DNA of 43,803 bases from Acidobacteriota bacterium (GCA_040004225.1 JBDUBI010000184.1:1-43803); one strand, 5' to 3'. Positions 5,924 through 42,540 are shown, counted from the first letter of the stretch. Made by a program: numbers and translations. The notes: a model not told the origin generated them from the letters alone.

Positions 5924-5925
5924 AC

Positions 5926-7782: not shown

Positions 7783-7858
7783 AGGAAGCCATCGTATTGC
7801 GCCCGCAACGCCGCCGGCACGCGGCCGACCCGCCGACCGGGCGGTCCGGGGGGCTCTC

Positions 7859-10800
7859 GTGATCCCAGAAAGCGGAGAATTGAGAGCGCCGCTCTTCCGG
7901 CATGTCTTCGAATTGCTTGCCGGTAACGAGCAGCTGCGACCGGACGCGGTCGCTATCGTCGCGGCCGGCCGTTCTCCGACGACCTACCGCAGTCTTCTGG
8001 CAAACGCCCTGGGACTCGCCGACCGATTGAAGGAGTTGGGCGTCGGGAGGGCGGACCGGGTCGCGGTCGTCTTGCCGAACGGTCCGGAGATGGCGACGGC
8101 GTTCCTCGCGGTCTCAATGGCCGGAGTCTGCGCGCCTTTGAATCCCGGCTATCGCGCCAACGAGTTCCGGTTTCTTCTTCCCGACCTCGGCGCGCGGGCG
8201 CTGATCGTCTCCGCGGGCGATGAAACCTCACCTGCCCGCCTGGCGGCGCGGGAGCTGGCAATACCCATCTTCGAAGCGCGGCCGGCGGTTGATTCGGGCG
8301 CGGGCGGCTTCACTCTGACGGGCGATTCGACGGGCCCGCCCGCTTCCCCCGGTTCCCCGGACGCAGACGACCTCGCGCTCGTCCTCTACACCTCGGGGAT
8401 GACGTCGAGGCCGAAGGCGGTTCCCCTCTCTCACCGTCGGATCTGCATCTCCGCGCACAACATCGCGGTCGCGCTCGAGCTCACGCCGGGCGACCGCTGT
8501 TTGAACGTCATGCCGCTCTTTCACGCGCATGGCCTGATCATCGCGCTGCTCTCCTCCTTGACGGCGGGAGGGTCGGTCGTGTGCTCCGGCGGATTCTCGG
8601 CAGAGGATTTCTTCGCCTCGGTCCGGGACGCGCGGCCGACCTGGTATACGGCGGCGCCGACTATCCACCATGCGGTCGTCGAGAGCGCGCCGGAGTACCG
8701 GGGGATCCTCCGGGGCCACGGCGTGCGCTTCATCCGATCCTCCGCCGCCTTTCTGCCCGCGAACGTGAAGGCGGGGCTCGAGCGGGAGTTCGCCTGTCCG
8801 GTGATCGAGGCGTACGGGATGACGGAGTGCACGCAGATCACGTCGAACCCTCGGACGCCGGACGGACGGAGGGAGGGCTCCGTGGGCGTCCCCGCAGGCC
8901 CGACGGTCGCCGTTCTGGACGAGACTGGGAGGGTCCTGCCCCCGGGCGACGCCGGAGAGGTGGTCGTCCGGGGTCCGGCGGTCGTCACCGGTTATCTGAG
9001 CAATCCCGCCGCGGACCAGAGCGCGTTCTTCGACGGCTGGTTCCGGACCGGCGACCAGGGGGTCCTCTCGGCAGACGGGTACTTGACACTGACGGGTCGC
9101 CTGAAGGAAATCATCAACTGTGGCGGCGAGAAGCTCTCTCCCTATGAAGTGGATGAAGTCCTGATGGATCATCCCGCGGTTTCCCAGGCGGTCGCCTTTG
9201 GGGTCGCGCATCCGACACTCGGGGAGGACGTCGCCGCGGCGGTTGTCCTGCGCGGCGGCGCCGTGGCGACGGAGACGGAGCTCCGCGACTTCGCCGCGAC
9301 GCGTCTGGCGGATTACAAGGTTCCCCGCCAGATTCTGATCGTCGCCGAGATCCCGAAGAGCGCGACAGGAAAGCTTCGCCGCGTGGGTCTCGCCGAGGCG
9401 CTCGGGCTCGCGGCTCCGGCGGAGGGCCGCTCCGCGGCGGCCGCTCCCGCTCCCGCGCCAGAGGAGTCGGTGGAGCGGAGGCTCGCGAAGATATGGGCGG
9501 AGCTTTTGAAACTCGACAGCGTGGACATGAATGCCAACTTCTTCCGACTCGGGGGGGACTCCATCCTGGCATCGCGCCTCGTCGCGAGAGTTCGAAAAGA
9601 ATTTCGGGTGGAGCTTCCGTTGCGCAGCCTCTTCGCGACGCCGACGGTCGCGGAGCTGTCCTCCACGATCGAACGGAGCAAGTCCCAACCGGCGCCGCCG
9701 ACCGCGCCGGCGCGGGAGCGGTCGCGCCCTGCGGAGCCCCCCTCTCCCGAGCCCGAGGGCTTCCCGACTCCCGCGTCCTTCCCCTCGGTCTCGTCGCCCG
9801 CCGCCGTCCCGGCCGCGGAAGCGCTGTCCAGTTCGCCCGTGGGCGAGAGGGTGCACTTCAGCCTCATCTTCTTCTCCGCGGACGGCTCGACGGCGTCATC
9901 CGACAAGTACCGGCTCGTTCTCGAGGCGTCGCAGTTCGCCGACCGGCACGGCTACACGGCGGTCTGGACCCCCGAGCGCCACTTTCACCCCTTCGGAGGC
10001 CTGTATCCGAATCCGGCGGTCCTCGGAGCCGCGATCGCGGCGACGACGAACCGCGTTCAAATTCGCGCCGCGAGCGTCGTGCTTCCGCTTCAGAACCCCA
10101 TCCGGGTGGCGGAGGAGTGGGCCTTAGTCGACAACCTCTCGCGGGGGCGCGTCGCCGTCTCGTTCGCCTCCGGCTGGCACGTCAACGATTTCGCGCTCTG
10201 GCCGTCGACTTTCGAGAACCGGAAGAAAGTCATGTTCGAGCGTCTTCGCATCGTTCGGGACCTGTGGGCCGGCAAGCCGTTCATGACACGAAACGGCGCT
10301 GGCATCGAGATTCCGGTGACGAGCTACCCGAGGCCGATCCAGCCCACCCTGCCTTTCTGGCTGTCGTGCCAGTCCGATGAAACGTTCGCGATGGCGGGCG
10401 AGCTCGGGGGAAATGTCATCACGTCGATGTTCCTGATGTCGGTCGAGGAGCTGGCGGGGAAAATCGCCGTCTACCGCCAGGCCCGCGCCCGCGGCGGCCA
10501 CGATCCGGCGACGGGACAGGTGACCGTCAGCCTCCATACCTTCCTGGCGGAGGACGCGGCCACCGTGCGGGAGAAGGTGGGCGGGGCCTATCTCGACTAT
10601 CTTCTCGTCAACCTCGGTCTCCAGGCCGACCGCGTTCGCGCAGCGGGCGACGAGTTCGAGCCCTCCGACGCCGACAAGGAGTTTCTCACCCGACAGGCGA
10701 GCGAGCGGCTGTTCAACGAGCGCGGTCTCGTCGGGACCGTCGCCGCCTGCGCCGCGAGGGTCGCCACCTTGACGGCGATCGGCGTGGACGAGATCGCCTG

Positions 10801-10915
10801 CCTCATCGACTTCGGGATCGACTTCGACTCCGTGATGGCCAGCCTCTATCAGTTGAACCGCCTCAAGGACCTCTGCGCCGTCCGGTCCGCTTCCACCCCG
10901 GCGATCTCCGGATGA
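7859..10915 (+). CDS. Tri-domain loading protein: acyl-activating (AMP-binding) domain, carrier protein, luciferase-like monooxygenase (LLM)
   Basis: GTG start. AMP-binding motifs: 'LVLYTSGMTSRPKAV', 'MPLFHAHGL', 'WYTAAPTIHH', 'RFIRSSAA', 'IEAYGMTE', 'GWFRTGDQG', 'GGEKLSPYEVD', 'ATGKLRR'. Carrier: 'FFRLGGDSILASRL' (about 9550). A Pro/Ala/Ser linker follows. LLM domain from about 9845: 'FSLIFFSADG', 'YRLVLEASQFADRHGYTAVWTPERHF', 'VVLPLQNPIRVAEEWALVDNLSRGR', 'FASGWH'. Confidence 0.88.
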   Translation: MIPESGELRAPLFRHVFELLAGNEQLRPDAVAIVAAGRSPTTYRSLLANALGLADRLKELGVGRADRVAVVLPNGPEMATAFLAVSMAGVCAPLNPGYRANEFRFLLPDLGARALIVSAGDETSPARLAARELAIPIFEARPAVDSGAGGFTLTGDSTGPPASPGSPDADDLALVLYTSGMTSRPKAVPLSHRRICISAHNIAVALELTPGDRCLNVMPLFHAHGLIIALLSSLTAGGSVVCSGGFSAEDFFASVRDARPTWYTAAPTIHHAVVESAPEYRGILRGHGVRFIRSSAAFLPANVKAGLEREFACPVIEAYGMTECTQITSNPRTPDGRREGSVGVPAGPTVAVLDETGRVLPPGDAGEVVVRGPAVVTGYLSNPAADQSAFFDGWFRTGDQGVLSADGYLTLTGRLKEIINCGGEKLSPYEVDEVLMDHPAVSQAVAFGVAHPTLGEDVAAAVVLRGGAVATETELRDFAATRLADYKVPRQILIVAEIPKSATGKLRRVGLAEALGLAAPAEGRSAAAAPAPAPEESVERRLAKIWAELLKLDSVDMNANFFRLGGDSILASRLVARVRKEFRVELPLRSLFATPTVAELSSTIERSKSQPAPPTAPARERSRPAEPPSPEPEGFPTPASFPSVSSPAAVPAAEALSSSPVGERVHFSLIFFSADGSTASSDKYRLVLEASQFADRHGYTAVWTPERHFHPFGGLYPNPAVLGAAIAATTNRVQIRAASVVLPLQNPIRVAEEWALVDNLSRGRVAVSFASGWHVNDFALWPSTFENRKKVMFERLRIVRDLWAGKPFMTRNGAGIEIPVTSYPRPIQPTLPFWLSCQSDETFAMAGELGGNVITSMFLMSVEELAGKIAVYRQARARGGHDPATGQVTVSLHTFLAEDAATVREKVGGAYLDYLLVNLGLQADRVRAAGDEFEPSDADKEFLTRQASERLFNERGLVGTVAACAARVATLTAIGVDEIACLIDFGIDFDSVMASLYQLNRLKDLCAVRSASTPAISG

Positions 10916-12153
10916 GCCTTCGGCGTCCGAGCCTCGAGATCCCGGGGGAAGCGCTTTCGGAGGTCGACCGGGGCCCACTCGGCGGGATCGTAGTCCTCGA
11001 CGCCTCGCGGACGCTCTCCGGACCCTACTGCACGATGCTGCTCGCGGACATGGGCGCCACGGTCGTCAAGATCGAACAGCCGGGGCAGGGCGATCCCTCC
11101 CGGGGATGGCCCCCCTTTTTGCGGGATGAGAGCACCTATTTTCTGAGCGTCAACCGGAACAAGAGGAGTGTGACGCTCGATCTCCGGCAGCCGGATGGTC
11201 GACGGTTGCTCTGCGACATGGCGAGCCGCGCGGACGTTTTCGTCGAGAACTTCAAGACGGGCTTCCTGTCGGGGCTCGGTCTCGACTTCCCGGCGCTCCA
11301 CCGGGTCAACCCGCGCCTCGTGTACTGCTCGATCTCCGGATACGGACAGACTGGACCGCGCCGCCAGGAGACGGGATTCGACCTCACGATTCAGGCGGAG
11401 AGCGGGATCATGGACGTCACGGGCCAGCCCGACGGCCCGCCCACGAAAGTGGGCGTTCCTCTCACGGACGTGACGGCCGCTCTGTACGCGGCGTACGGCG
11501 TTCTCGCCGCGCTGCGCGCCCGGGACCGGACGGGGTCCGGGCAACTCGTGGACGTCGCGCTCTTCGACGCCGCGCTTTCGCTTCTGACGTTCCAGGCTTC
11601 GGGCGTGCTCGCGGGGACCGGCGAGCCGCGGCGGCTCGGGAATCTGCACCCCTCTCTCGCTCCCTACGAAGTGTTTCGAGCGTCCGACGCCAGTTTCGCG
11701 CTCGGCGTCGGCACGGACGCGCTCTGGAACCGCCTCTGCGCCGTGTTGACCGCCCACGGGTTCTCCAGCGAGCCCGCCTTTGCGACGAACGCCGGCCGCA
11801 TCGAACGCCGGGACACGCTCCACCAGCGGCTGGAGGAGGTCTTCGCCCGCCGGCCGACCGGGCACTGGCTTGCGGCCCTGAGAGAGGCGGGGATTCCGTG
11901 CGGCCTCATCCGCACGGTCCGCGGGGCGCTCGAGGGCGAGCAGGTCGCCGCCCGCGAAATGGTTCGCGAAATGGAGCATCCCGCGCTCGGGAAAATCCGC
12001 TCCGTCGGAATCCCCGTGAAGCTCTCCGCGACGCCGGGATCGTTCCGGCGCTCCCCCCCACTGTTAGGCGGCGACAACGAAGAGATCTATGGCGGCTGGC
12101 TCGGGATCTCCGCGGCCGAGCTTCAGGACCTGAAGAGCCGGGGGGTCGTTTGA
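10912..12153 (+). CDS. Family III CoA-transferase (CaiB/BaiF/Frc family)
   Basis: The ATG overlaps the upstream stop (ATGA, 10912-10915). 'LSGPYCTMLLADMGATVVKIEQPGQGDPSRGW' and 'GFDLTIQAESGIMDVTGQPDGPP' (catalytic Asp region) are typical family III signatures. Confidence 0.85.
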   Translation: MSLRRPSLEIPGEALSEVDRGPLGGIVVLDASRTLSGPYCTMLLADMGATVVKIEQPGQGDPSRGWPPFLRDESTYFLSVNRNKRSVTLDLRQPDGRRLLCDMASRADVFVENFKTGFLSGLGLDFPALHRVNPRLVYCSISGYGQTGPRRQETGFDLTIQAESGIMDVTGQPDGPPTKVGVPLTDVTAALYAAYGVLAALRARDRTGSGQLVDVALFDAALSLLTFQASGVLAGTGEPRRLGNLHPSLAPYEVFRASDASFALGVGTDALWNRLCAVLTAHGFSSEPAFATNAGRIERRDTLHQRLEEVFARRPTGHWLAALREAGIPCGLIRTVRGALEGEQVAAREMVREMEHPALGKIRSVGIPVKLSATPGSFRRSPPLLGGDNEEIYGGWLGISAAELQDLKSRGVV

Positions 12154-12275
12154 GCCGCGCGCCGCATTCCGGGATCCCCGACGCATCTTCCGCCGCGGAG
12201 GGGGGGAGAGGCCATCCGGCGACAGGACGCCCCTTCGAGAGCCCGCCGGGCTCCGACCAGGCGCCCGGACGTCCG

Positions 12276-13727
12276 ATGTCTTTCGGGCAGCAGCGGCTCT
12301 GGTTTCTGGATCAGCTGGAGCCTCAGAACCCCGCGTACCACGTGCAGGTGGCGCTCCGGTTGAGAGGGCCGCTCGACCTCGCGGCCCTCGAGGCAAGCCT
12401 CTCGGAGATCGCGAGGCGGCACGAGATTCTGCGGACGACCTTTCAGGTGGCCGGCGGCGAGCCGCGTCAGGTCATCGCTCCCGCGCAATCGCTCGCTTCC
12501 CGGGTCGCCGCCGTCCCCGACGGCTCCGGGGAGGATCGCGAACGGGAGGTCCTGCGGCTCGCCCACGAAGAATCGCTGCGGCCGTTCGACCTCGCGCGAG
12601 GACCGCTCGTCCGGGTCTCCCTCTTCCGGATGTCGGAACAAGACCACGTGTTCGTCGTCGTGATGCATCACATCGTCACGGACGGCTGGTCGACGTCGGT
12701 CTTTTTCCGCGAGCTCGGTGCTCTGTACAGAGCCTTCCGCGACCGCGAACCGTCGCCCCTTCCGGAGCCGCCGATGCAATACGCGGACTTCGCGGAGTGG
12801 CAGAGGCGATGGCTTCTCGGAGACGTTCTCGAGGAACAACTCACCTTCTGGAAGCGGCAGCTCGGGCAAAACCTCCCCATGCTCGATCTACCGCTCGATC
12901 GTCCGCGCTCGAGCCACCAGGGTCAGGGAGCGAGGCAGTCCTTCCGTGTTTCGAGAGAGACGGCGGAGGGATTGAAGTCGCTCGGCCTCGACGAAGGAGC
13001 GACTCTCTACATGTCGCTCCTCGCCGTGTTCGCGATGCTGCTCCACGCGCGAACGGGTCAGGAGGACATCGTCATCGGCACCCCGATGGCCGGGCGCACG
13101 CAGCTCGAGACCGAGGATCTTATCGGATTCTTCGTCAATCCTCTCGTGCTGCGAATCGACCTCTCCGGCGACCCGACGTTCCGAGAGCTGCTCGGACGCG
13201 TGCGCGAAGTCGCGCTCGACGGATATGCGCACCAGGATCTCCCGTTCGAAAAGCTCGTCGAAGTTCTGCATGCGCAGCGAACGCTGAGCTCGTCGCCCCT
13301 TTATCAGGTCTGGTTCGCGTTTCAGAACGTGCCCGACCCGCGGCCCGAGCTTCCGGGGATTCTCGTGACCGCGCTCGAACCGGACTGCCGGCAACTCGAC
13401 CGCGGACCGACCGGCACCGCGCGTCACGATCTGAGGTTCGGCCTCTCTCAGACGCCCGATGGGCTGCGCGGAGACGTGGAGTACAAGACGGACCTCTTCG
13501 ACGCACCGACCATCGCCTCCCTGGTCTTCGATTACGAAACACTTCTCCGGATCGCCGTCGAGGACTCGGGACGGACGTTGCGCCGTTGTATGGAGCGGCT
13601 CCGGGAAGCCCGCAGACGGGAAGGCGCGGGCCGCAGGAGCCGGCACTCGGAGGCGGCGCGCGGCTCGCTGCTGACTTCGCGTCGAAAGCCGCTGCACGGC
13701 GACGCGCCGGACGAGACGTCGAAATGA
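12276..13727 (+). CDS. Stand-alone NRPS condensation domain protein (LCL-like)
   Basis: 'MSFGQQRLWFLDQLEPQNPAYH', 'RRHEILRTTF', canonical 'MHHIVTDGWS', 'QYADFAEWQR', 'IGFFVNPLVLR'. No A or T domain is attached. The start is chosen at the first ATG that gives a normal C1 motif; ORF-track 11898 is a 5' extension overlapping the CoA-transferase. Confidence 0.85.
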   Translation: MSFGQQRLWFLDQLEPQNPAYHVQVALRLRGPLDLAALEASLSEIARRHEILRTTFQVAGGEPRQVIAPAQSLASRVAAVPDGSGEDREREVLRLAHEESLRPFDLARGPLVRVSLFRMSEQDHVFVVVMHHIVTDGWSTSVFFRELGALYRAFRDREPSPLPEPPMQYADFAEWQRRWLLGDVLEEQLTFWKRQLGQNLPMLDLPLDRPRSSHQGQGARQSFRVSRETAEGLKSLGLDEGATLYMSLLAVFAMLLHARTGQEDIVIGTPMAGRTQLETEDLIGFFVNPLVLRIDLSGDPTFRELLGRVREVALDGYAHQDLPFEKLVEVLHAQRTLSSSPLYQVWFAFQNVPDPRPELPGILVTALEPDCRQLDRGPTGTARHDLRFGLSQTPDGLRGDVEYKTDLFDAPTIASLVFDYETLLRIAVEDSGRTLRRCMERLREARRREGAGRRSRHSEAARGSLLTSRRKPLHGDAPDETSK

Positions 13728-16700
13728 CGAGAGGTCCGGGTGGTCGTGGCGAGCAGGATACCGGGATCAATCAGATCGACCTCGAGGACGTGTACGAGCT
13801 CTCCCCGATGCAACAGGGCATCCTGTTCCACACACTCTACGATCCGGTCAACGACGTGTACCTGGAGCAGAGCGTCGTGACCCTCCGCGGAAAGCTCGAC
13901 GTCGCCCGCTTCGCGGAGGCGTGGCGGCGAGTCGCCGAGCGGCACTCGATCCTGAGAACCTCTTTCCATTGGGAGGATCTGGAGAAGCCGGTGCAGGTCG
14001 TCCAACGGGATGCTCGAGTCTCCCTCGACGTTCGGGACTGGCGCGCGCTCCCGGGGGACGAGCGGTCGAGCCGTCTCGCCGCCTTCCTCGAAGAGGATCG
14101 CGGAAGAAGCTTCGATCTGACGTCCGCTCCTCTTTGGCGCGTCGCGCTCCTGCAAACGGAGGACGACGTCCACGAATGCGTTCTGAGCTTTCAGCATCTG
14201 CTTCTCGACCGGTGGTCGCGCCTACTGCTCTTCAAAGAGATCTTCACTCTCTACGCTGCCTCGGTTTCCGGCAACGAGGCGGCCCTGCCTCGGGCGCCCT
14301 CGTACTCCGAATACATCGCGTGGCTGCAGAAGCAGGACCGGAACAGGACGGAATCGTTCTGGCGGGGTACGCTCGCCGGGTTCTCGGCCCCGACGCCGCT
14401 GCGAAGCGTGGGGGCAAGTGCGGCTGGAGGCGGTTCGGGCTTCACCGAGGCGAGTGGTCGACTCTCGCCGGACCAAACCGCCCGCCTTCAGGCTCTTGCC
14501 CGAAACAGCCGGGTGACACTGAATTCGGTCATCCAGGGCGCCTGGGCGATTCTCGCGAGCCGGTACAGCGGTCAGGACGACGTCGTCTTCGGCGTCACGG
14601 TATCCGGCCGCCCTCCCGGCCTGCCGGGCGTCGAAACAATGGTTGGGCTCTTCATCAACACGGTGCCCTTTCGAGTCGCCGTCCCGCGAGAGACGACCGC
14701 GCGGGAATTCCTCCAGGCCGTCCAGCGGAGGTTCATGAAGCTTCGCGAGTACGAGTACAGCGCACTTCTGGACGTTCAAGGGTGGAGCGAAGTGCCCCGG
14801 GGCACGCCTCTTTTCGATAGCCTCGTCGTCTTCGAAAACATCGACAGCGATTTCGACTCCGACGCCGCGTCCGGCGGCTTGAAAGTCGTCCGGACCCGCG
14901 GCTTCGGTGGGCGTACGAATTTTCCGCTCACTCTGGTCGTGAACGCGGAGCCGGCGCTTGCACTGCGGGTCTTCGGCGAGGGGGGGATCTTCGATCCTAC
15001 GACTCTGTCTCGGATGCTCGGGCATCTCGAGACGCTGCTCGACGCGATGACCGACCGGCCGGAACAATCGGTGTCTAACCTCCCGATCTTGACCGACGCG
15101 GAGCGCCGTCAGATCCTCGACGATTGGAACCGGCGTCCGGCAACAAACTCTCCGACGGAGTGCCTCCACCGGCGGTTCGAGGCGCAGGCCGACCGAGCTC
15201 CGGAATCGATCGCGGTCGAGTTCGACGGCCAAACCCTCGGCTATCGGGAGCTCAACCTTCGCGCCAACCGGCTTGCCCGACACCTGCGGCGGTTCGGGGT
15301 CGGCGCCGAAGTTCTCGTCGGCGTTCTTCTGGAGCCGTCGCTCGATCTCGTCGTCGCTCTGATGGCGGTGCTCAAGGCCGGTGGCGCCTACGTTCCGCTC
15401 GATCCGACCTATCCCCCCGAGCGGATCGGCTTCATGCTCGAGGACGCTCAAGCCGTCCTTCTCGTCACGGACGGACGAGCGGCTGAGTCGCTCGAGGTCC
15501 CGGCCGGCGTGCTCTCCGTCCGGATCGACGCGGACGCCGCGTCGATCGCCGGGGAAGATGGCCAGAACCTCGACCACGAGGATTCCCCGACGAGCCTCGC
15601 CTACCTGATCTACACCTCCGGGTCGACGGGTCAGCCGAAAGGCGTGTTGGTGGCGCACGCGAACGTGGACCGGCTCTTCACGTCGACGGAGCCGTGGTTC
15701 CGGTTCGACGAGCGCGACGTGTGGACGCTCTTCCATTCCCATGCCTTCGACTTTTCGGTGTGGGAGCTCTGGGGCGCGCTGAGGTACGGAGGCCGGCTCG
15801 TCGTGGTTCCGCGTTCCGTCGCCCGCTCGGCGGACGCATTCCACCACCTGCTCGCCGCCTCCGGCGTGACCGTTCTGAATCAGACGCCCTCGGCATTTCG
15901 CCAGCTCATTCCGATCGACGCAAGCTCCGATACCCCCCTCGGCCTGCGCCTCGTGATCTTCGGCGGCGAGGCGCTCGACGCCGGGATGCTCGCGCCCTGG
16001 CTCGAACGCCACGGCTGCGAAACACCCCGGCTCGTGAACATGTACGGGATCACCGAAACGACCGTGCACGTGACCTATCACCCGATGACGTCGGCGGATG
16101 TTCGCAAGCCGTTCGCGAGCGTGATCGGACGGCCGATACCGGACCTTCAGGTGCTCGTGCTCGATGACGAGCTCCGCCTCTGTCCGATCGGAGTCTCGGG
16201 CGAGCTCTGCATCGCTGGGGCGGGTTTGGCGCGAGGCTACCTGCGCCGACCCGATCTCACTGCTCGGAAGTTCATTCGAAACCCCTTCGCGGAGGACCCC
16301 GCCGATCATCTCTACAGATCGGGCGACCTCGGGCGCTTCCTTCCCGACGGCAATATCGAGTACCTGGGCCGGATCGACGACCAAGTCAAGATCCGCGGAT
16401 TTCGAATCGAGCTCGGAGAGGTCGAGTCGGTCCTCGCGCGGCACCCATCCGTAGCGGCGAGCGCCGTGATCGTGCGCGAGGACGCGTCAGGGGACAAGCG
16501 CCTGGTCGCTTACGTCGTGGGACCCGGGGGTAGCGCGCCGGCCGCTTCCGAACTGCGCCCGTTTCTGAAGCGCACGCTGCCCGAATACATGGTGCCTTCA
16601 TCGTACATCGCGCTCGAGAAGCTTCCGATGACTTCGACCGGAAAGCTTGATCGACGGGCATTGCCCGAGCCCGGGGAGACTCACCTAAGCGTGGCGTCCT

Positions 16701-19700
16701 TCGTTGCGCCGAGAAACCCCGTCGAAGAGATGCTGGCGGGAATCTGGGCCCACGTCCTGCGGCTGCCCTCAGTCGGAATCGACGACGACTTCTTCTCTCT
16801 CGGAGGCCACTCTCTCATCGCGACGCAGGTCATCTCGAGGATAAGAGACGCGTTCGGGGTCGAGTTGCCGCTGCGGTCGCTCTTCGAGTCCCCGACGGTC
16901 GCGGGTCTCGCGGAGTTGATTGTGGTTGCGCAGGGTGAAGGCTCCGGTGCTGCGTCGCCTCCCCTCGTTTCCTGCGAGCGCTCCGAGAAACTCCCCCTGT
17001 CCTTCGCGCAGCAGCGTCTCTGGTTCCTCGACCAGTTCGAGGCCGGCAACGCCTTCTACAACGCTCCGCTGCTCCTTCGTCTCGCGGGCGAATTGCACGT
17101 TGATGCGCTGGAAGGCGCGTTCCACAGGGTGATCGCGCGTCAAGATTCCCTCCGGACGAGGTTCGACTCGATGGACGGAAACCCGGTACAGACCATCGAA
17201 GTCAGCGTCGAGTTCCGGGTCGCGCGCGTGGACTTGACCGGCCTGGCCGAGCCGCAGCGCGAAGCGGCGGCGGCCGCGAGGATCGCGGAAGATGCCGCTT
17301 TTCCGTTTAATCTCGAGAAAGCTCCGCTTCTCCGGGCCACTCTCTACCGTCTCGATCCCCGCGAGCACCTTCTTCTCGTTACGACGCATCACATCGTCAG
17401 CGACGGCTGGTCGATGGACGTATTCATGCGTGAGCTCGCCGCTTTTTACGAGGAGCTGTCCACCGGAAAGCCGGCCGCGCTTCCGCGTCTGCCGATTCAG
17501 TACGCGGACTTCGCCGAGTGGCAGCGTCGGTGGCTGTCCGGAGAAGTGCTCGAGAGCCAGCTTTCCTACTGGAAGGAGAGGCTCGTCCGGCTGCCCGTCC
17601 TGGAGCTGCCGACAGACCGACCCCGCCCGCCGGTGCAGAGCCACCGCGGCGCCCGGTGCTCCCTCTCGCTTTCGAACGATCTTGCGGAAGGCTTGCGCCG
17701 TCTGAGCCGGCGGGAGGGCGTCACCCTCTACATGACTCTTCTCTCGGCCTTTCAAACCCTCTTGACCTTCTACACCGGGCAGGAAGACATCGTGGTGGGC
17801 TCGCCGATCGCCGGTCGGACACGCGCCGAGGTCGAGGGACTGATCGGTTTCTTCGTCAACGCTCTCGTTTTGCGCACGAGCTTCTCCGGAGACCCTTCCT
17901 TCCGGGAGGTCCTGGGGAGGGTTCGGCAGGTCACGCTCGGTGCGTACACGCATCAGGATCTTCCATTCGAAAAACTGGTCGAGCACATGCATCCGGATCG
18001 AAACCTCGCGTCCAATCCGCTCTTTCAGGTCCTGTTCGCGGTCCAGAACACCCCGGCGGTGACCGTCGCGCTGACGGGTCTTGAGGTCGTGCCTCTCGCG
18101 GTGGACATGCCGACGACCCGGTTCGATCTCGAGGCCTACGTCTCCGAGACCCCGTCGGGCCTCGTCTGCACCTTCGTCTACGCCACGGATCTGTTCGAGC
18201 CGGAGACGATCGTTCGAATGATGTCCCACTATCAGCGGCTGCTCGAAAGCGTGGTGGAAGATGCGACCCGGCCGCTTTCGAGACTGACGATTCTGACGGC
18301 GACGGAGCGCCGCCAGATCCTCGAGGACTGGAATCGCACGGAGAAGCCGTATCCGCGGGACCGAACGGTGCCGGCCCTCTTCGAACGGCAGGCGGAAAAG
18401 ACCCCGGAGCGCACCGCCGTCGTCGCGCGCGCCGCCCGGTTGACGTATCGGGAATTGAACGAACGAGCGAATCGACTGGCCTGGTACCTCAAGGATCGCC
18501 GCGTCGGTCCCGAGGTCCTTGTGGGGCTCTGCGTCGAGCGGTCGCCTGAAATGCTCGTCGGATTGCTGGGCATTCTGAAGGCCGGCGGCGCGTATGTGCC
18601 GCTCGACCCGACCTATCCCCGCAACCGGCTGGAGTTCATGCTGGGTGAGACCGCGGCCCCGGTCGTCGTGACGCTGGAGCCCTCCTCGCACAGCCTTCCG
18701 GCCGGCCAATTCGAAGTCGTGCGCCTCGACTCCGACTGGCCGCGCATCGCCGCGGGGAGCGTCGAGAACCCTCCCGCCATCGCCGCTCCGGAGAACCTCG
18801 CGTACGTCCTTTACACGTCCGGGACCACGGGGAGACCCAAGGGCGTGGCGATCGAGCACCGCAGCACGGTCGGATTGCTCGCGTGGGCGAGGGAGGCCTA
18901 CTCCGACCTCGAGCTTCAGGGCACGCTCGCCTCGACCTCTATCAACTTCGATCTTTCGGTGTTCGAGATCTTCGCGCCGCTGTGCTGGGGCGGGACCGTG
19001 CATCTCGCGCAGAACGCCCTGGAGCTCGCCGATCTCCCGACGCGCGGCGACGTGACGCTGGTCAACACCGTTCCTTCCGTTATGAAGGAGCTTCTCGGGA
19101 TCGGGGCGCTGCCGAGGTCGGTCGCCACGGTCAACCTCGCGGGCGAACCTCTTTCGGCGTCGCTCGTCCGCGAGATCCTGCGCGGCGGAACCGCGGAGCG
19201 GCGCCTGTTGGATCTCTACGGACCGACGGAAGACACGACGTACTCGACCTGCGCAACGCGGTTTTCAGAAGGTCCGGTGACGATTGGGCGTCCGATCTCG
19301 AACAAGCGCATCTATATCCTCGATCGGCACCTGCGGCCGGTTCCCGTCGGCGTGCCTGGAGACCTCTATACGGCGGGCGTCGGCGTCGCCCGGGGCTATC
19401 TGCATCGGGTCGATCTGACCGCGGAGAGATTTCTCGCCGACCCGTTCCGCCCCGGCGAGAGGATGTACCGGACGGGTGATCGGGCCCGGTTCCTGCCCGA
19501 CGGGAACGTGCAGTATCTGGGCCGTCTCGACCAGCAGGTCAAGGTCCGGGGATTCCGCATCGAACTCGGGGAGGTGGAGGAGGTGCTGGCGCAGCACCCG
19601 CGGGTGGGGGCCTGCGCGTTGACGGCCTGGCAGTCGGCCACCGGCGACAAGCGGCTGATCGCGTACATCGCACCTCGAATCGGCGAAGAGGCGCCGCCGG

Positions 19701-20209
19701 TTTCTTCGTTGCGGGATTTCATGGCGGCCACTCTGCCTTACTACATGATTCCCTCGACCTTCATCTTCCTCGAGGCGCTTCCGCTCAGCCCGAATGGCAA
19801 GGTGGACCGGCGGGCGCTCCCGGATCCATCGCCGAGCTCACCCGAGCGGGAAACCGCTCCGGTGCCGCCCCGAACCAGAATCGAGCGCACCATCGCGGAA
19901 ATCTGGGAGCAGGTCCTCGGCGTGGAGCGCGTCGGGGTTCACGACAACTTCTTCGATCTCGGAGGTCACTCCCTCCTGGCGACCCTCGTCTTCGCACGCC
20001 TGCTGAATGCGTTTCCGATCTCGCTGCCGTTGCGCACGCTCTTCGAGAAACCGACGGTCGCGGAGCTCGCGGAAACCATCGAGCTCTCCGGCGAGATCGA
20101 TCCCGCGATACGCCGCTCGCCAATCGCCGCGGTCTCGCGCGAGGCGATGCGGGGCGACGGAGCTCCCGGAATGCGTCCTGCCGGCCCGAAAGACAAGAAC
20201 CGGGTCTAG
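13724..20209 (+). CDS. Bimodular NRPS, C(DCL-like)-A-T-C(LCL)-A-T; predicted Thr and Ala
   Basis: The ATG overlaps the upstream stop (ATGA, 13724-13727). C1 domain: 'LEDVYELSPMQQGILFH' with 'QHLLLDRWS' (nt 14192). A1: 'LAYLIYTSGSTGQPKGV', 'NMYGITETTVH'; code DFWNIGMVHK, the Thr code. T1: 'FFSLGGHSLIATQ'. C2: 'LSFAQQRLWFLDQ', 'HHIVSDGWS' (nt 17387). A2: 'LAYVLYTSGTTGRPKGV', 'DLYGPTEDTTY'; code DLFNNALTYK, an Ala-type code. T2: 'FFDLGGHSLLATL'. No TE domain. Confidence 0.93.
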   Translation: MTRGPGGRGEQDTGINQIDLEDVYELSPMQQGILFHTLYDPVNDVYLEQSVVTLRGKLDVARFAEAWRRVAERHSILRTSFHWEDLEKPVQVVQRDARVSLDVRDWRALPGDERSSRLAAFLEEDRGRSFDLTSAPLWRVALLQTEDDVHECVLSFQHLLLDRWSRLLLFKEIFTLYAASVSGNEAALPRAPSYSEYIAWLQKQDRNRTESFWRGTLAGFSAPTPLRSVGASAAGGGSGFTEASGRLSPDQTARLQALARNSRVTLNSVIQGAWAILASRYSGQDDVVFGVTVSGRPPGLPGVETMVGLFINTVPFRVAVPRETTAREFLQAVQRRFMKLREYEYSALLDVQGWSEVPRGTPLFDSLVVFENIDSDFDSDAASGGLKVVRTRGFGGRTNFPLTLVVNAEPALALRVFGEGGIFDPTTLSRMLGHLETLLDAMTDRPEQSVSNLPILTDAERRQILDDWNRRPATNSPTECLHRRFEAQADRAPESIAVEFDGQTLGYRELNLRANRLARHLRRFGVGAEVLVGVLLEPSLDLVVALMAVLKAGGAYVPLDPTYPPERIGFMLEDAQAVLLVTDGRAAESLEVPAGVLSVRIDADAASIAGEDGQNLDHEDSPTSLAYLIYTSGSTGQPKGVLVAHANVDRLFTSTEPWFRFDERDVWTLFHSHAFDFSVWELWGALRYGGRLVVVPRSVARSADAFHHLLAASGVTVLNQTPSAFRQLIPIDASSDTPLGLRLVIFGGEALDAGMLAPWLERHGCETPRLVNMYGITETTVHVTYHPMTSADVRKPFASVIGRPIPDLQVLVLDDELRLCPIGVSGELCIAGAGLARGYLRRPDLTARKFIRNPFAEDPADHLYRSGDLGRFLPDGNIEYLGRIDDQVKIRGFRIELGEVESVLARHPSVAASAVIVREDASGDKRLVAYVVGPGGSAPAASELRPFLKRTLPEYMVPSSYIALEKLPMTSTGKLDRRALPEPGETHLSVASFVAPRNPVEEMLAGIWAHVLRLPSVGIDDDFFSLGGHSLIATQVISRIRDAFGVELPLRSLFESPTVAGLAELIVVAQGEGSGAASPPLVSCERSEKLPLSFAQQRLWFLDQFEAGNAFYNAPLLLRLAGELHVDALEGAFHRVIARQDSLRTRFDSMDGNPVQTIEVSVEFRVARVDLTGLAEPQREAAAAARIAEDAAFPFNLEKAPLLRATLYRLDPREHLLLVTTHHIVSDGWSMDVFMRELAAFYEELSTGKPAALPRLPIQYADFAEWQRRWLSGEVLESQLSYWKERLVRLPVLELPTDRPRPPVQSHRGARCSLSLSNDLAEGLRRLSRREGVTLYMTLLSAFQTLLTFYTGQEDIVVGSPIAGRTRAEVEGLIGFFVNALVLRTSFSGDPSFREVLGRVRQVTLGAYTHQDLPFEKLVEHMHPDRNLASNPLFQVLFAVQNTPAVTVALTGLEVVPLAVDMPTTRFDLEAYVSETPSGLVCTFVYATDLFEPETIVRMMSHYQRLLESVVEDATRPLSRLTILTATERRQILEDWNRTEKPYPRDRTVPALFERQAEKTPERTAVVARAARLTYRELNERANRLAWYLKDRRVGPEVLVGLCVERSPEMLVGLLGILKAGGAYVPLDPTYPRNRLEFMLGETAAPVVVTLEPSSHSLPAGQFEVVRLDSDWPRIAAGSVENPPAIAAPENLAYVLYTSGTTGRPKGVAIEHRSTVGLLAWAREAYSDLELQGTLASTSINFDLSVFEIFAPLCWGGTVHLAQNALELADLPTRGDVTLVNTVPSVMKELLGIGALPRSVATVNLAGEPLSASLVREILRGGTAERRLLDLYGPTEDTTYSTCATRFSEGPVTIGRPISNKRIYILDRHLRPVPVGVPGDLYTAGVGVARGYLHRVDLTAERFLADPFRPGERMYRTGDRARFLPDGNVQYLGRLDQQVKVRGFRIELGEVEEVLAQHPRVGACALTAWQSATGDKRLIAYIAPRIGEEAPPVSSLRDFMAATLPYYMIPSTFIFLEALPLSPNGKVDRRALPDPSPSSPERETAPVPPRTRIERTIAEIWEQVLGVERVGVHDNFFDLGGHSLLATLVFARLLNAFPISLPLRTLFEKPTVAELAETIELSGEIDPAIRRSPIAAVSREAMRGDGAPGMRPAGPKDKNRV

Positions 20210-20353
20210 CGGCACTCCCCGGCACCCGGGCGCCTGTGATCCGTAAAGTATTGAAAACAAGGCGATCTGACTTCGCACGCCTTCCGCCTGCTCCGCGGAT
20301 CCGGATTCCCTCTTCTCCCGGGGTCGCAGATCTGTTATCTTCTTTCGTCCATC

Positions 20354-20570
20354 ATGAACAATAAATGCGCAACCCCGGGTACCTCCCCGGCGAAGGACCA
20401 TCTGCCGGCTGCCTCCGGCACTCTCGCGGCGCATTTCCCTTCCTTCGACTGAACCATGAAAAACCGAACGCGGGAACGGGTACCTCCCGGGCGGAGCTGT
20501 CGAGTCGTTTTCTTATTTTAACGAACGCAACGCATGTACAACTCAAACGCGGCGGCGGGTACCACCTGGG
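20354..20570 (+). repeat. Array 2: three further copies of the same 36-37 nt motif
   Basis: Copies at 20354-20390 'atgaacaataaatgcgcaaccccgggtacctccccgg', 20456-20491 'atgaaaaaccgaacgcgggaacgggtacctcccggg' and 20534-20570 'atgtacaactcaaacgcggcggcgggtaccacctggg'. Core spacing is 101 and 80 nt. The array lies in the 473-nt gap between the bimodular NRPS and the CmlA-like gene. Confidence 0.8.
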
Positions 20571-20682
20571 CCGACGTTTGTTCCGCGGGGCCCTCGTCTC
20601 GACTTTCTGAGAGTCATCCTCCCGCGGCGCGCGCCGGCGCTTCGCGGATCACGGCGGATCGCCCGCGGACACGGGGAGAGCG

Positions 20683-22278
20683 GTGTCGGTCATGACGCCC
20701 GTTTACCTGCGCCCCAACGCGTTCGTCGAGCCGCTTTTCAACCGCTGGTATGCGTGGCCCTACCTCGTCTCGCCGATGACGGCGGCGATGTATGTCGAAA
20801 GCCTGCACCTGCCCCTGCTGGAATCGTTCCTGGCGAATCCCCGGATGCATGTGGCGGCGCTCTCGAATCCCGAGATGGCGGGAGGGCCGTTCGTCGGGCA
20901 CGGGGAGGCGAGCGCGCCGGCCGTCGCGCGACTCCTCCAGGAAACGCGCCGGGCGAGCGCGCCGCTGCTGGAGTTCGCCGCGGCCGTGCGCGAGCTCACG
21001 AAGATCCTCGCGGAACGTGCCGACGGGTGTTCGCTCCAGTCGGTCTACAGCGCCGTCCCAGAGGCCCTTCGCGGATTCGTCGAGCTCGTCTACGACGTCA
21101 ATCACCATGCTTCCATTCGATTCCTGGAGCCGCTCCTGTACCGAAGCCGGTTCTTCGACGAGAGCGCGCAGAGCGTGTTGCTCTCGCTGGTCGGGGGAGA
21201 CGATCGCGCTTTCGTCTTTAACACGCCCCGACTCGAAGAGGGCGGCGGCCTGCGGCTCGACCTGCCCTATCGCTCCGAAGCGCTCGACGCGCTCTTTCGG
21301 ATGCGAGAGCACGCGCGACCACTCGCCTTCGCGCGGGAGGCCCTCGGAGTGGCGGAGTCGTCCGGAGGAAACTTCGAGCGCCTCTTCACGGACCGTCCGC
21401 CGCGTCTGCAAAGCCTCCCCCCGTCTTCCGGAGTCCGTGTCCGATATTTTGGCCACGCCTGCGTCCTCGTCGAGACCCGGGGAACGAGCGTGCTGACGGA
21501 CCCTCTGATCCCGTACGAGCACGGCGCCGGAATCCCGCGATACAGCTGGAGCGACCTCCCCGCGTCGATCGACTACGCGCTGATCACCCACGCCCATCAG
21601 GACCACTGCATGCTCGAGACGCTGCTGCAGCTGCGCCACCGGATTCGAAACATCGTGGTGCCCCGCAATTCGGGTGGGGGGCTCGCCGACCCGTCCTTAA
21701 AGCTCATCCTCGAGGCCGCGGGATTCCGCAACGTCTACGAGCTCGACGAGCTCGGTGAGATCGCGACGCCGGGCGGCTCCATCACCGCCGTTCCGTTCCT
21801 CGGCGAGCACGGGGACCTGAACATCCGCAGCAAGACAACCTATCTCGTCAAGCTGCTCGGCCGGTCCTTTCTCTTCTGCGCGGACTCGAACGCCTTCGAG
21901 CCGGCCATCTACGATCACCTTCGCGACCTTCTCGCCGGGCTCGACGCCGTCTTCGTGGGGATGGAATGCGAAGGCGCTCCGATGAGCTGGATGTACGGGC
22001 CAGTCCTGACGGCGCCGCTCGCGCGCCGGATGGACCAGTCGCGCCGGCTCGACGCGTCCGATTGCGAGCGGGCCATGGCGATGGTCGAGAGACTTCGGCC
22101 GCGCTCCGCGTACGTCTATGCGATGGGCTCCGAGCCGTGGCTCGGCTATCTCACCTCGATCCACTACACCGAACAGTCGCGTCCGATCGTGCAGTCCCGC
22201 GCGTTCGTCGCCGCCTGCGAGGCCGCCGGAGTCCCGGCCGCCGTCCTCCACGGCTCGAGCGAAATGTCGTTCGCATGA
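20683..22278 (+). CDS. Metallo-beta-lactamase-fold protein with N-terminal extension; CmlA-like non-heme diiron beta-hydroxylase candidate
   Basis: 531 aa. The C-terminal half carries 'ALITHAHQDH' (HxHxDH), 'FLGEHGD', 'FCADSN' and 'GMECEGAPMSWMYGP'. It is preceded by an N-terminal domain of about 250 aa. The stop overlaps the start of the stand-alone A-T gene. The family assignment rests on recalled CmlA architecture, not on a search. Confidence 0.65.
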   Translation: MSVMTPVYLRPNAFVEPLFNRWYAWPYLVSPMTAAMYVESLHLPLLESFLANPRMHVAALSNPEMAGGPFVGHGEASAPAVARLLQETRRASAPLLEFAAAVRELTKILAERADGCSLQSVYSAVPEALRGFVELVYDVNHHASIRFLEPLLYRSRFFDESAQSVLLSLVGGDDRAFVFNTPRLEEGGGLRLDLPYRSEALDALFRMREHARPLAFAREALGVAESSGGNFERLFTDRPPRLQSLPPSSGVRVRYFGHACVLVETRGTSVLTDPLIPYEHGAGIPRYSWSDLPASIDYALITHAHQDHCMLETLLQLRHRIRNIVVPRNSGGGLADPSLKLILEAAGFRNVYELDELGEIATPGGSITAVPFLGEHGDLNIRSKTTYLVKLLGRSFLFCADSNAFEPAIYDHLRDLLAGLDAVFVGMECEGAPMSWMYGPVLTAPLARRMDQSRRLDASDCERAMAMVERLRPRSAYVYAMGSEPWLGYLTSIHYTEQSRPIVQSRAFVAACEAAGVPAAVLHGSSEMSFA

Positions 22279-30200: not shown

Positions 30201-33200
30201 ATTACGAGAAGCTTCTGGCGGCCATCGTCGAAGATGCGGCACGGCCGCTGAACGGACTTCCCGTGTGGAGCGACGCGGAGCGGGATCGCGTGCTGGTCGA
30301 GTGGAACCGGACGGCCCGCCGTCCCTCGAAGCCCGCTTGCGCGCACGATCAATTCGAGGCGCAGGCCGTCCGGTCTCCGAACTCGATCGCGATCGTTTTC
30401 CGGGAGGAGCGGCTCTCCTACGCGGAGGTCAACGCGCGCGCAAACCGCCTGGCGCATTATCTCGGATCGATCGGCGTCCTGCGGGGTGGTGTCGTCGCGC
30501 TCTGCCTGGAGCGCACGCCCGAGCTGCTCGTCGCGATGCTGGCGGTTCTGAAAGCGGGAGCCGCCTATCTGCCGCTCGATCCGGGCCATCCGGCGGAACG
30601 GACCGGCTCAATTCTCGAAGACGCCGCAGTCTCCTTCGTTCTGGCAGACCGCGCTCTCTCTGCCCCGGCGGGTATTCGGGTCGTGGACCTCTCAGCGGAG
30701 CACGAGAGGATCGCCGGGGCGAGCGCCGACAATCCGACGTCCGGGACGCAGCCGGACGACCTCGCCTACGTGATCTACACGTCCGGCTCGACCGGCAGGC
30801 CCAAGGGTGTCGCGGTGGAACACCGCGCTCTCGCGAACTTGCTCCAGTCGATGCGGGAGAGCCCGGGAATCGACCGGAACGACACGCTTCTCGCCGTGAC
30901 GACCGTGACGTTCGACATCGCGACGCTCGAATTGCTCCTGCCGCTGACGGTCGGAGCCAGAACGGCGCTGGCGGAATCGGAAGCCGCCCCCGACGGAAGG
31001 GCGCTCGCCGAAGAGCTGTTCCGGTCTCAGGCGACCGTCATGCAGGCGACCCCGTCTACCTGGCGCCTCCTGATCGAGTCCGGTTGGAAGGGTCAGTCGA
31101 ACCTGAAGATGCTGTGCGGGGGCGAGCCGCTCTCGCGGGACCTGGCCGACGCCCTGCTCTGCCGGGGAGGCTCTCTCTGGAACATGTACGGACCGACGGA
31201 GACCACCATCTGGTCTGCCGTCCTGCGGGTCAGCGCCGGCGAGGGACTTCCCGGCATCGGGCCGCCCATCGCGAACACCCAGCTCTACGTTCTCGACGAG
31301 GAGCTTTCTCCGGTGCCGATCGGGGTTCGTGGCGAGGTGTTCATCGGCGGGACCGGCCTCGCTCGCGGGTACTGGAAGCAGCCTTCGCTGACGGCGGAGC
31401 GGTTCGTGCCGGATCCCTTCCGGCACGAACACGGCGCGCGGCTCTTTCGGACGGGAGACGTGGGCCGCTTCCGAGCGAACGGGACGATCGAGCTCCTCGG
31501 CCGCATCGACCGGCAAGTCAAGCTTCGGGGATACCGCATCGAGCCGGGCGAGGTCGAGGCCGCGCTGGCGGGCCACGCCGAGGTTCGAGAAGTCGCGGTG
31601 ATGGTGCGGGAGGACATCCCCGGTGATCGAAGGCTCGTCGCTTACGTGGTGCCCCGGGTTTCGGAGGCGGGCGAAGTCGAGGCGCAGTGGCAGGCCGAGA
31701 TGAGCTCGCAATGGCAGGCGCAGTACGGAGCGGCGATCGGAGAGAGCGATACGCAGGGGGTCAGCCTCTACGGTTGGGCCGACCTCGGCAACGTCGCCGA
31801 GGAGCTGGAGGCGTGGCTCGCGCCTGTGGCCGAGGACATCCTCTCCTGGAGTCCCCGGCGCGTTCTCGAGATCGGATGCGGTACCGGGCTCCTCCTCGAA
31901 AGGCTGGCTCCCCGCTGCACGCATTACGCGGGGACGGATCTTTCGCAGGAGGCGCTCGACAGCCTTCGCAGGCGCCTCGACGCGACGGAGCTTGCCGGTG
32001 AGCGCGTGGCTCTCCGGCGTCGGATGGCGGATGACTTCGGAGGCATCGAACCGGGTTCATTCGACACTGTCATTCTCAACTCGGTCGTCGAGTACCTCCC
32101 GGGGGTCGAGACCCTCCTGCGGGTGGTCGAAGGGGCGGTCCGCGCGGTGGGCGCCCGGGGGCACGTGTTCCTGGGAGACATCCCGAGCCTGCCGATGTGG
32201 GAGATCTTTCACGCGGCGGCGCAGCTCGAGCGCGCTCCCGACGCGCTTCCCGTCTCGCAGCTCCGCGACCGCGTGCGCCACGCGTCCTCTCAGGGAAGCC
32301 GTCTGCTGGTCGATCCGGATTTCTTCCGGGCGCTTTCTCATCGAATCGCCGGGATCGGGAGCATCGAGGTCCGCCAGTCCCGGGCCCGGTTCTCCCACGA
32401 GGTCTCGAGGCTCCACGCCGATGCCTACTACGACGTGGTGGTGCACGTCGGAGAGTCGTTCCCGGAGCGAGACCGGGAGCGCGTCACGCGCGACTGGGAG
32501 AAAGACGGGATGTCGACGCCCGCTCTCGAGGATCTGCTGGCCGGCACGCGCGATTCGCTTCTCGTGCTCGGAGTCCCGATCCAGCGGCTCGCCACCGAGG
32601 CCAGGCTCCTCGAGCTTCTCGAAGGCGACGACGCTGCCGGAACGGTGCGGGATCTCCGGAGGCGCCTGGACGAGGTTTCAGGCGTCGACCTGGAGACCAT
32701 CGTCGATCTCGCCGGGCGCCGCGATTGGGCCGTGGACCGGGTGTGGTCCGAGTCCGGTCGCGACGGCCGCTGCGACCTTCTATTCCGGAGTCCCGTGCAC
32801 CATGCGGGACACCTCGGTTCCGGTCTGTCAAAGGAAACCGGACGTCGCAGGCCGTGGGCAGACTACACGAACAGCCCGGCCCGCGCGGCCCTGTCCCGCC
32901 GTCTGGCGCCGGAGCTTCGATTCTTCGCCCGGCGAAAATTGCCGCCCTTCATGGTTCCGGCAGTCATAGAAATTCTGGACGTGCTCCCGCTGACGGCGAA
33001 CGCCAAGGTGGACTATCGCGCCCTGCCGCCGCCGCAAGGAGTCACCGCGCTCTCGGGCGAGTTATTTCTCGCGCCGCAGACGGAGGCCGCGAAAGCCCTC
33101 GCGGCAATCTGGTCCGAGATCCTCGGGATCGCCCGAGTGGGGATCCGCGACGACGTCTTCGATCTCGGCGCCGACTCCCTCCTGATTTTTCGGATCGCCA

Positions 33201-37846: not shown

Positions 37847-37867
37847 GTGATTGGAGAAGGTCTGTCC

Positions 37868-42497: not shown

Positions 42498-42540
42498 GCG
42501 CCCGGACGATGTCACGACTCTTCCCATCGATCTCAAGCAT

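Follow-up and report, generated by a model that had tools for sequence, protein, structure and literature searches.

The window analysed here is the whole of a high-G+C contig of 43.8 kb (43,803 nucleotides; G+C about 65%) from an Acidobacteriota bacterium (GCA_040004225.1, JBDUBI010000184.1), and it carries a hybrid cluster of nonribosomal peptide synthetase (NRPS) and polyketide synthase (PKS) genes arranged in two co-directional operons. In the gap ahead of each operon, a module of ~40 nt recurs three times, each copy opening with an ATG that lacks a Shine-Dalgarno (SD) sequence. An earlier reading of the same DNA (the original prediction) had taken the gap ahead of the second operon as simply non-coding; instead, it holds a chain of short, SD-less upstream open reading frames (uORFs) coupled to the first gene of the operon. 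This chain is very probably a relay architecture with a cis-regulatory role.

The module consists of three parts in a fixed order: the SD-less ATG, an A-rich stretch, and an invariant box, CGGGTACCTCCC(N)GG, located 22-25 nt from the ATG. In alignment it reads cc-ATG-AAAAAC..AAACGCGACGG-CGGGTACCTCCC-N-GG-CGAAgg. The gap at 20210-20691, ahead of operon 2, contains three plus-strand copies with the core GGTACC(T/A)CC at 20378, 20479 and 20558 (array B). The gap ahead of operon 1 contains array A, called array 1 in the original prediction, with box copies at 844, 951 and 1058. The three copies that had been placed at 20354, 20456 and 20534 and matched to the array at 821-1070 are confirmed, these coordinates being the module-opening ATGs, and the box of the third copy agrees with its description as the most diverged of array B. 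The spacing of 107 and 107 nt in array A also stands; that of array B, given as 101 and 80 nt, is right within one base (101 and 79 nt from box to box, 102 and 78 nt from ATG to ATG). The box copies of array B are as follows.

20378 to 20390, plus strand: first copy, GGTACCTCCCCGG
20479 to 20491, plus strand: second copy, GGTACCTCCCGGG
20558 to 20570, plus strand: third copy, GGTACCACCTGGG

The degenerate 13-mer GGTACCWCCYNGG, allowing at most one mismatch, matches the window 7 times against 0.46 expected, a count reached by none of 100 shuffles. All seven matches lie on the plus strand, and six of them fall within the gaps ahead of the two NRPS operons. An nhmmer profile built from 44 modules, taken from other contigs only, recovers exactly these six window sites, with E values from 4.6e-12 to 5e-4, and the next match stands at E = 0.22. 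The seventh 13-mer match (32091-32103, AGTACCTCCCGGG; one mismatch), located inside the PKS-NRPS gene, lacks the ATG part, has an nhmmer E value of 0.22 and is probably due to chance. The motif had been said to occur only in the two long gaps of the cluster, and this holds for the six copies; the gap ahead of operon 2 is, however, not the sole other large one, as a stretch of ~600 nt between the NRPS-TE and GT2 glycosyltransferase genes (37506-38103) contains no convincing gene and no module. No complement of the box occurs within the window or any fetched locus.

The modules and the reading frames that they open are arranged along the two gaps as listed.

20354 to 20452, plus strand: uORF B1, 32 codons and TGA, without SD; 3 nt separate its stop from the ATG of uORF B2
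20376 to 20390, plus strand: box B1, CGGGTACCTCCCCGG, 24 nt after the ATG
20456 to 20521, plus strand: uORF B2, 21 codons and TAA; its box lies 23 nt after the ATG and is read in another frame; a 12-nt gap follows
20477 to 20491, plus strand: box B2, CGGGTACCTCCCGGG
20534 to 20695, plus strand: uORF B3, 53 codons; its TGA (20693-20695) overlaps the cmlA-like ATG at 20692 as ATGA
20556 to 20570, plus strand: box B3, CGGGTACCACCTGGG, the most diverged copy
20673 to 20680, plus strand: SD of the main gene, GGGGAGAG, within uORF B3; -7.9 kcal/mol against the anti-SD
821 to 838, plus strand: uORF A1, only 5 codons long owing to an in-frame TAA; its box spans 842-856; the weakest copy (E = 5e-4)
929 to 1018, plus strand: uORF A2, 29 codons; box at 949-963, CGGATACCTCCCCGG
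1034 to 1324, plus strand: uORF A3, 96 codons; box at 1056-1070; it traverses a dead cmlA-like 5' stub (VFLRQNA, ~1176-1206)
1321 to 1401 and 1398 to 1415, plus strand: two extra small ORFs, with ATGA overlaps with each other, with uORF A3 and with the NRPS ATG at 1412

The relay layout is carried by the start codons, the stops and the overlaps. None of 43 module ATGs is preceded by an SD that reaches -6 kcal/mol against the anti-SD (mean -0.7), while the main-gene starts after the arrays average -6.4. Read in the frame set by the ATG, 16 of 25 junctions have their first stop 3-8 nt ahead of the following ATG; in the other two frames, 0 and 2 junctions do. The stop codon at the junctions varies between TGA, TAA and TAG, which would be the behaviour of a working stop codon, and the lengths of uORF1 differ between relatives by whole codons (29 vs 30; 35, 35 vs 33). 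The last uORF meets the main start in an ATGA overlap in ten arrays, those of the window (A and B) and of loci L004, L021, L022, L025, L105, L147, L151 and L155, with array A of the window reaching its main start through a chain of three such overlaps. The arrays thereby show the layout of termination-reinitiation, an ATGA/TGATG overlap or a gap of a few nucleotides on one strand. Coupling by termination-reinitiation is described as needing overlaps or very short gaps (PMC6728339, PMC10666635).

Operon 2 had been given a start at GTG 20683. The ATG at 20692, with the SD at 20673-20680, is the likelier start, and the resulting 528-aa form is the one recorded for this contig. Elsewhere, the ATG of the module is itself the sole available in-frame start of the main gene: in two cmlA-like loci (L003, at 10001; L016, at 3227), in two tauD-like loci (L012, at 1586; L024, at 6950) and in L148 (at 3001). 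In these five loci the module thus also serves as the translation start region of the gene itself. L011, a relative of L012 and L024, has a second in-frame ATG where the latter two have ACG.

Comparison across loci strongly supports the proposal that the modules are a shared cis element marking both operon heads. Loci were fetched through the CmlA-like protein of operon 2, independently of the motif, at protein identities of 61-100%. Where the CmlA-like gene heads an operon beside NRPS genes, 1-3 modules lie just upstream in 8 of 8 loci (the window, L001, L003, L004, L147, L148, L151 and L155); where it stands mid-operon or outside an NRPS context, modules are present in 0 of 3 (L149, L154 and L153). 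The expectation that arrays precede operon starts in homologous clusters is thereby borne out. Modules are also missing at the more distantly related CmlA-like homologs (55-57% identity), which stand mid-operon or outside an NRPS context. A scan of one genome per species, in which two boxes had to lie 85-115 nt apart, gives 22 matches. Ten of these have the full module with the ATG on both copies, all in Acidobacteriota or Thermoanaerobaculia metagenome-assembled genomes (MAGs); the other 12, from Streptomyces and others, lack the ATG part and are chance matches. A metagenome scan contributes at least nine further contigs, eight of them distinct (L113 repeats L041). Altogether, arrays occur in at least 23 other contigs, and every full-module contig with an organism label is from Acidobacteriota, the Thermoanaerobaculia MAGs included.

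The gene after the array is always NRPS-related: a CmlA-like hydroxylase, a TauD-like dioxygenase followed by an NRPS, a C-domain NRPS, or an NRPS with a formyltransferase domain. In one MAG, arrays are found on two contigs (L022 and L025). Because the following gene varies and one MAG carries two arrays, the cassette is tied to NRPS operon heads and not to one gene. For the window, we infer co-regulation of the two halves of the cluster. A dispersed repeat of the repetitive extragenic palindromic or miniature inverted-repeat transposable element type was considered and rejected: the window copies lie at the two NRPS operon heads only, and in the other contigs covered the copies always stand ahead of NRPS-related genes and are co-oriented with them. 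A recent local duplication, which the original prediction named as a finding that would speak against it, is not the source of the similarity either; outside the module, arrays A and B share ~78% over 50 nt only, and each is closer to the arrays of other genomes. It is very improbable that the arrays are functionless leftovers of tandem duplications of the cmlA-like 5' end, or a small mobile repeat. Such an origin would explain why the modules resemble the cmlA-like 5' end, why a module in L003 continues into VYLRQNA and why A1 and A2 look decayed, and the dead cmlA stub of array A means that the cassette has clearly been duplicated and moved. It leaves aside that ATG, box and stop placement persist across 61-74% CmlA-like identity while the flanks have diverged freely, and that the copies stand at NRPS operon heads only, in one orientation and not scattered. 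In the literature, no paper combining Acidobacteria, NRPS and uORF was found, and the papers containing GGTACCTCCC are unrelated by title among the matches listed.

Within the module, it is the nucleotides that are conserved. The distance from ATG to GGTACC is 24 nt in 31 modules, 23 in 9, 25 in 5 and 22 in 1. Because this distance varies over 22-25 nt, the box is read in three frames (G-T-S, V-P-P and Y-L-P), the commonest of which encodes a similar N-terminus, MKNxNATAGTS. Substitutions in uORF1 between close relatives spread evenly over the codon positions (36:43:43). In the protein-ascertained loci, the four-fold-degenerate third positions of GGT ACC TCC never vary, with diverged flanks on either side, and the rare box variants include C-to-U changes. 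Nucleotides, frame and stop placement are thus kept, and not the sequence of the peptide. A reading of the repeats as protein, or as precursors of ribosomally synthesized and post-translationally modified peptides, was rejected on the three frames and the even substitutions, and no conserved peptide of the kind expected for an erm/cat-type arrest or inducible leader is found in the uORFs.

No conserved fold is supported for the modules. RNAalifold on 50 modules yields a 3-bp GGG/CCC hairpin with zero compensatory change, and the leader folds no better than its shuffles (z = +0.93), with z at or above 0 in 5 of 6 modules. The A2 module reaches z = -2.2, and B1 can pair AAAUGCGC with GCGCAUUU. 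A long hairpin between the A-rich start and a downstream U-rich stretch, which can be drawn for some modules, was rejected since pairing with the own flank (-11.6 kcal/mol) hardly differs from pairing with the flanks of other modules (-11.2 kcal/mol). Kissing between modules through the self-complementary GGGUACCU was also set aside, as it leaves the invariant UCC unexplained, and L148 as well, which has a single module. Rfam 15 gives no match in the whole window at gathering score, and 20200-20700 returned two chance-level matches only (E = 4.9 and 9.9). No terminator-like site lies on the plus strand at 20100-20750. Of the marks of a trp-type attenuator, array B has the short leader ORFs (21-53 codons); terminator, alternative hairpins and regulatory codon runs are lacking. 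On the minus strand, weak terminator-like sites at 20471-20489 and 20549-20565, formed by the box and the A-rich stretch with a 5-6 bp stem and an interrupted T-rich tail, were considered as terminators of antisense transcription but are probably a by-product of motif composition. A structured cis-RNA repeated in tandem, be it a riboswitch or an attenuator of the classic terminator/antiterminator kind, is largely refuted by these results and has next to no likelihood left: the long 5' leader before a biosynthetic operon would suit it, as would the longer hairpins that A2 and B1 can draw, and against it stand the missing Rfam match, the 3-bp consensus without covariation, the non-specific flank pairing and the missing plus-strand terminator.

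Upstream of each first module lies a promoter-like element.

20331 to 20341, plus strand: extended -10-like element of array B, TCTGTTATCTT (TGn + TATCTT), 12 nt upstream of the first ATG
795 to 806, plus strand: extended -10-like element of array A, TTCTGCTATTCT

The pattern T.TG.TA...T occurs 22-27 nt before the ATG in 17 of 24 first modules, and later modules do not have it; L155 has a perfect TGATATAAT. A simple two-hexamer scan of the array B gap found no -35/-10 pair. Since the extended -10-like element lies 12-15 nt upstream of the first ATG, the 5' leader of the mRNA is expected to be very short, and the transcript start would fall a few bases before the first ATG. Other promoter classes were tried on the module itself and rejected. 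For an extracytoplasmic function-type promoter (TGAAAAC-N16-GGTA), the AAC varies but the ATG never does, and a sigma-70-like extended -10 stands immediately ahead of the first module. For a sigma-54 promoter (GG-N10-GC; TGGCAC-N5-TTGC), GG and GC on the minus strand stand one base too far apart, and only some copies have TTGC; on the plus strand, the C of GC is present in just 49% of copies.

The position of the promoter-like element bears on the two functions originally offered for the motif, multiple operator sites or a repeated leader-RNA module. The leader-RNA module fits; operators fit poorly, as the modules lie downstream of the extended -10-like element and are all co-oriented with the operon. 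DNA operators for a transcription factor (for example of LuxR/GerE type), acting as roadblock or activator with the short ORFs incidental, are an improbable explanation. The box does hold the short palindromes GGTACC and CCCGGG, and a GerE + sigma70_r4_2 gene lies upstream in L148, with a GerE response regulator ~8 kb upstream in L003. The arrangement is nevertheless not that of an operator array: the copies share one orientation and follow the -10-like element, the invariant TACCTCC lacks symmetry, and the spacing is irregular (79-115 bp). Operators would also leave the fixed 22-25 nt from the ATG, the stops before the next ATG and the ATGA overlaps unexplained, and no regulator gene is a regular neighbour in the array neighbourhoods checked.

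The steps that lie beyond this anatomy are ones that we infer. In the proposed mechanism, two or three uORFs would form a ribosome relay into the first gene of the NRPS operon. Ribosomes would load at the 5'-proximal SD-less AUG, and termination-reinitiation would pass them along the successive uORFs and on to the main gene, so that the act of translation would matter and not the peptide. In composition, the leader is rich in C and poor in G, its GC skew falling to -0.29 to -0.33. Such a composition is expected of Rho loading sites, and an untranslated leader would on this ground probably end transcription before the operon. Translating ribosomes would cover the C-rich leader, premature (Rho-type) termination would be avoided, and the operon of 17-19 kb would be read through. 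The box must be recognized by its sequence; read in the transcription complex, it would hold RNA polymerase ~33-36 nt past each AUG, by estimate roughly the room for one ribosome and the polymerase. A paused polymerase would let the ribosome engage, which is how the proposal couples transcription to the start of translation. In its working, this would resemble ops/RfaH or the pause synchronisation of leader-peptide attenuators. In sequence, the box fits the GG-N8-YG consensus pause in either register. The full mechanism, uORF relay and coupling together, is plausible at somewhat less than even chances, and the part of it that makes the box a pause or factor-loading signal is a tentative one.

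Several points weigh against this account. Some junctions are loose (12 nt between B2 and B3, 18 nt after the first module of L004, 22 nt after that of L116), and because of these and of A1, which is cut to 5 codons, not every module can be a perfect relay step. At ~65% G+C, open frames as long as ~30 codons are no rarity. Both collection scans demanded the exact GG(G)TACCTCC, so the loci derived from them overstate the invariance of the box, for which the protein-ascertained loci are the fair sample. The GG-N8-YG consensus is met almost automatically by a GGG...CCCNGG box, and it derives from E. coli and not from Acidobacteriota. Similarity to the ops element is weak: the 12-nt consensus GGCGGTAGnnTG does not occur in the leader, and the box CGGGTACCTCCC agrees with it at no more than 7 of 12 positions by hand alignment. 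No NusG-like gene was seen among the array neighbours, in the 2-22 kb around each array.

The same relay could be read differently. The box may be recognized on the RNA by a trans-acting RNA-binding protein, or by a small RNA with a GGGAGGUACCCG-like seed, in which case the two or three copies would be serial checkpoints after the start codons that block or allow ribosomes and keep a costly pathway off. This alternative is doubtful. It would account for a box that is invariant, single-stranded and without structure of its own, and for rare C-to-U variants, which would still pair with G; the several copies per leader, and the box shared between the two window operons and between the two contigs of one MAG (L022 and L025), would resemble a regulon. 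The site, however, extends from +22 to +36 relative to the AUG, beyond the zone of about five codons in which pairing blocks initiation. There is also no complementary sequence in the window or the fetched loci, and no gene for an RNA-binding protein as a regular neighbour.

A further reading starts from the ACCUCC contained in the box, which is the anti-SD of the 16S rRNA 3' tail. As a mimic of that tail, the box would mask the main SD (CGGGAG/GGGGAG) until the ribosome on the last uORF melts the pairing, or it would bind a factor that recognizes the tail. The main-gene SDs after the arrays are mostly CGGGAG, GCGGAG and GGGGAG, complementing CUCCCG, and the last uORF crosses the main SD and ends in ATGA, as masking would require. 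There is, in contrast, no SD to mask where the module ATG is the main start (L003, L016, L011, L012, L024 and L148), the predicted fold of the window leader contains no box-SD pairing, and that leader is no stabler than shuffles. One copy would suffice, yet there are two or three, and the invariant GGGUA is left unexplained. Masking or tail recognition by mimicry is accordingly given a low probability. The KH domain of Era binds GAUCACCUCC.

A bolder proposal is speculative and unlikely as it stands. The CGGGUACCUCCC(N)GG box, 22-25 nt after SD-less AUGs and in two or three copies, would be a new transcription-translation coupling station for Acidobacteriota megasynthase operons, either an ops-like pause and loading site (for a NusG-type or other elongation factor) or a 16S 3' tail mimic recruiting a tail-reading factor. 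If true, ribosome and polymerase would be joined before an operon of 17-19 kb is entered.

Each part of the arrangement has a counterpart in a known system. The ops element reads GGCGGTAGCGTG, a form that was not found in the review PMC7819879. Targets of RfaH lack an SD; the ops sequence agrees with the consensus pause, and the delay is believed to aid ribosome recruitment (PMC7819879). Like RfaH/ops (JUMPStart, Proteobacteria), the modules place a short invariant element in the 5' leader of very long, costly operons with SD-less starts, and the box shares GGCGG..TA with ops. Unlike there, an SD precedes most of the main genes that follow the relay, the element occurs in 2-3 copies, each with its own AUG and short ORF, and the phylum is another. 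NusG paralogs serve long antibiotic operons, and those of the LoaP and TaA type, which act on polyketide antibiotic operons, resemble the present case in being a dedicated read-through control of secondary-metabolite megasynthase operons (PMC7819879). The genes of these paralogs usually adjoin their targets, whereas none is seen beside the arrays here. LoaP targets use a leader RNA hairpin, and no structure is supported in the modules.

In leader-peptide and uORF control (the pause synchronisation of trpL and pyrL; the Rho-dependent tnaC, mgtL and toiL-topAI), translation of a short leader ORF decides the progress of the polymerase, as it would here, and the peptide is often unimportant; those leaders differ from the present ones, which have no regulatory codon runs, alternative hairpins or terminator and contain several serial uORFs with the same box. 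The antibiotic-inducible leader peptides of erm, cat and cmlA attenuation also place a short ORF before the regulated gene, but here selection does not act on the peptide, the copies differ in frame and no SD-masking hairpin is supported. Termination-reinitiation coupling, as described in PMC6728339 and PMC10666635, has stop and start overlapping or a few nucleotides apart and SD-less downstream starts, as in the arrays; it is known between real operon genes, whereas the arrays are chains of peptide-agnostic leader mini-ORFs. The parts are thus known (uORF leaders, ATGA coupling, ops-like boxes); their combination, serial SD-less peptide-agnostic mini-ORFs with a fixed-distance box, portable at NRPS operon heads within one phylum, is apparently undescribed.

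Acidobacteriota abound in soil, have for the most part not been cultured and contain many silent NRPS/PKS clusters. If many of these operon heads share a portable leader cassette, a scan for the module would be a direct handle for finding co-regulated clusters, and a relay that is kept, removed or rewired would help to switch clusters on in heterologous hosts. As a compact natural case of SD-less mini-ORFs, a fixed-distance box and ATGA coupling, it makes coupling at the entry of long operons testable outside Proteobacteria and Firmicutes.

The operons behind the two arrays comprise the following genes.

1412 to 20209: operon 1, with NRPS, AsnB-like, A-T-luciferase-like, CoA-transferase III, C-domain protein and NRPS genes
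1412 to 5923, plus strand: first gene of operon 1, an NRPS with domains C-A-T-C, 1503 aa
20692 to 37505: operon 2, with CmlA-like diiron beta-hydroxylase, A-T, PKS-aminotransferase-NRPS and NRPS-TE genes
20692 to 22278, plus strand: first gene of operon 2, the CmlA-like diiron beta-hydroxylase, 528 aa

Those relatives of the CmlA-like protein that are named belong to the Acidobacteriota, Pyrinomonadaceae MAGs for the most part, and an exact look-up of the window's own protein returned no second contig. The stretch 1-800 of the window contains Arg-rich ORFs only, of which the two tested (66-674, plus strand; 439-816, minus strand) have no Pfam match, and no clear gene lies upstream of array A. 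In several other loci, an Sfp-type phosphopantetheinyl transferase gene is directly upstream of the array (L003, 9068-9766; L147, 1943-2692; also L006 and L025). The window has its gene of this type at 42466-43296, the far end of the cluster. Regulator genes are near some arrays: the GerE + sigma70_r4_2 gene of L148 (2161-2892) is directly upstream, and the response regulator with a GerE domain in L003 is at 1428-1886. A sigma-54 activator gene near the L006 array (3407-4372 in original coordinates, minus strand) is a single case.

Array A has a composite origin. The modules resemble the cmlA-like 5' coding end, the module of L003 running directly into VYLRQNA. Window 769-1206 and L021 6519-6984 are collinear (74% over 468 nt) from the promoter through three modules to the tenth cmlA codon, and window 1340-1500 has an 81% match in L007, an NRPS-first locus, to its proximal leader. 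Array A is therefore a cmlA-type leader cassette with a dead cmlA stub, set before the proximal leader that belongs to the NRPS operon itself. Another cmlA-internal fragment occupies 1208-1273. At 1232-1265, an inverted partial copy of the module centre (AGGTCCCCGCCGTTACG) comes after an AT-rich patch (TTGTATTTAATGAAACAAGG); this copy is 88% complementary to 1048-1064 and may mark a recombination joint.

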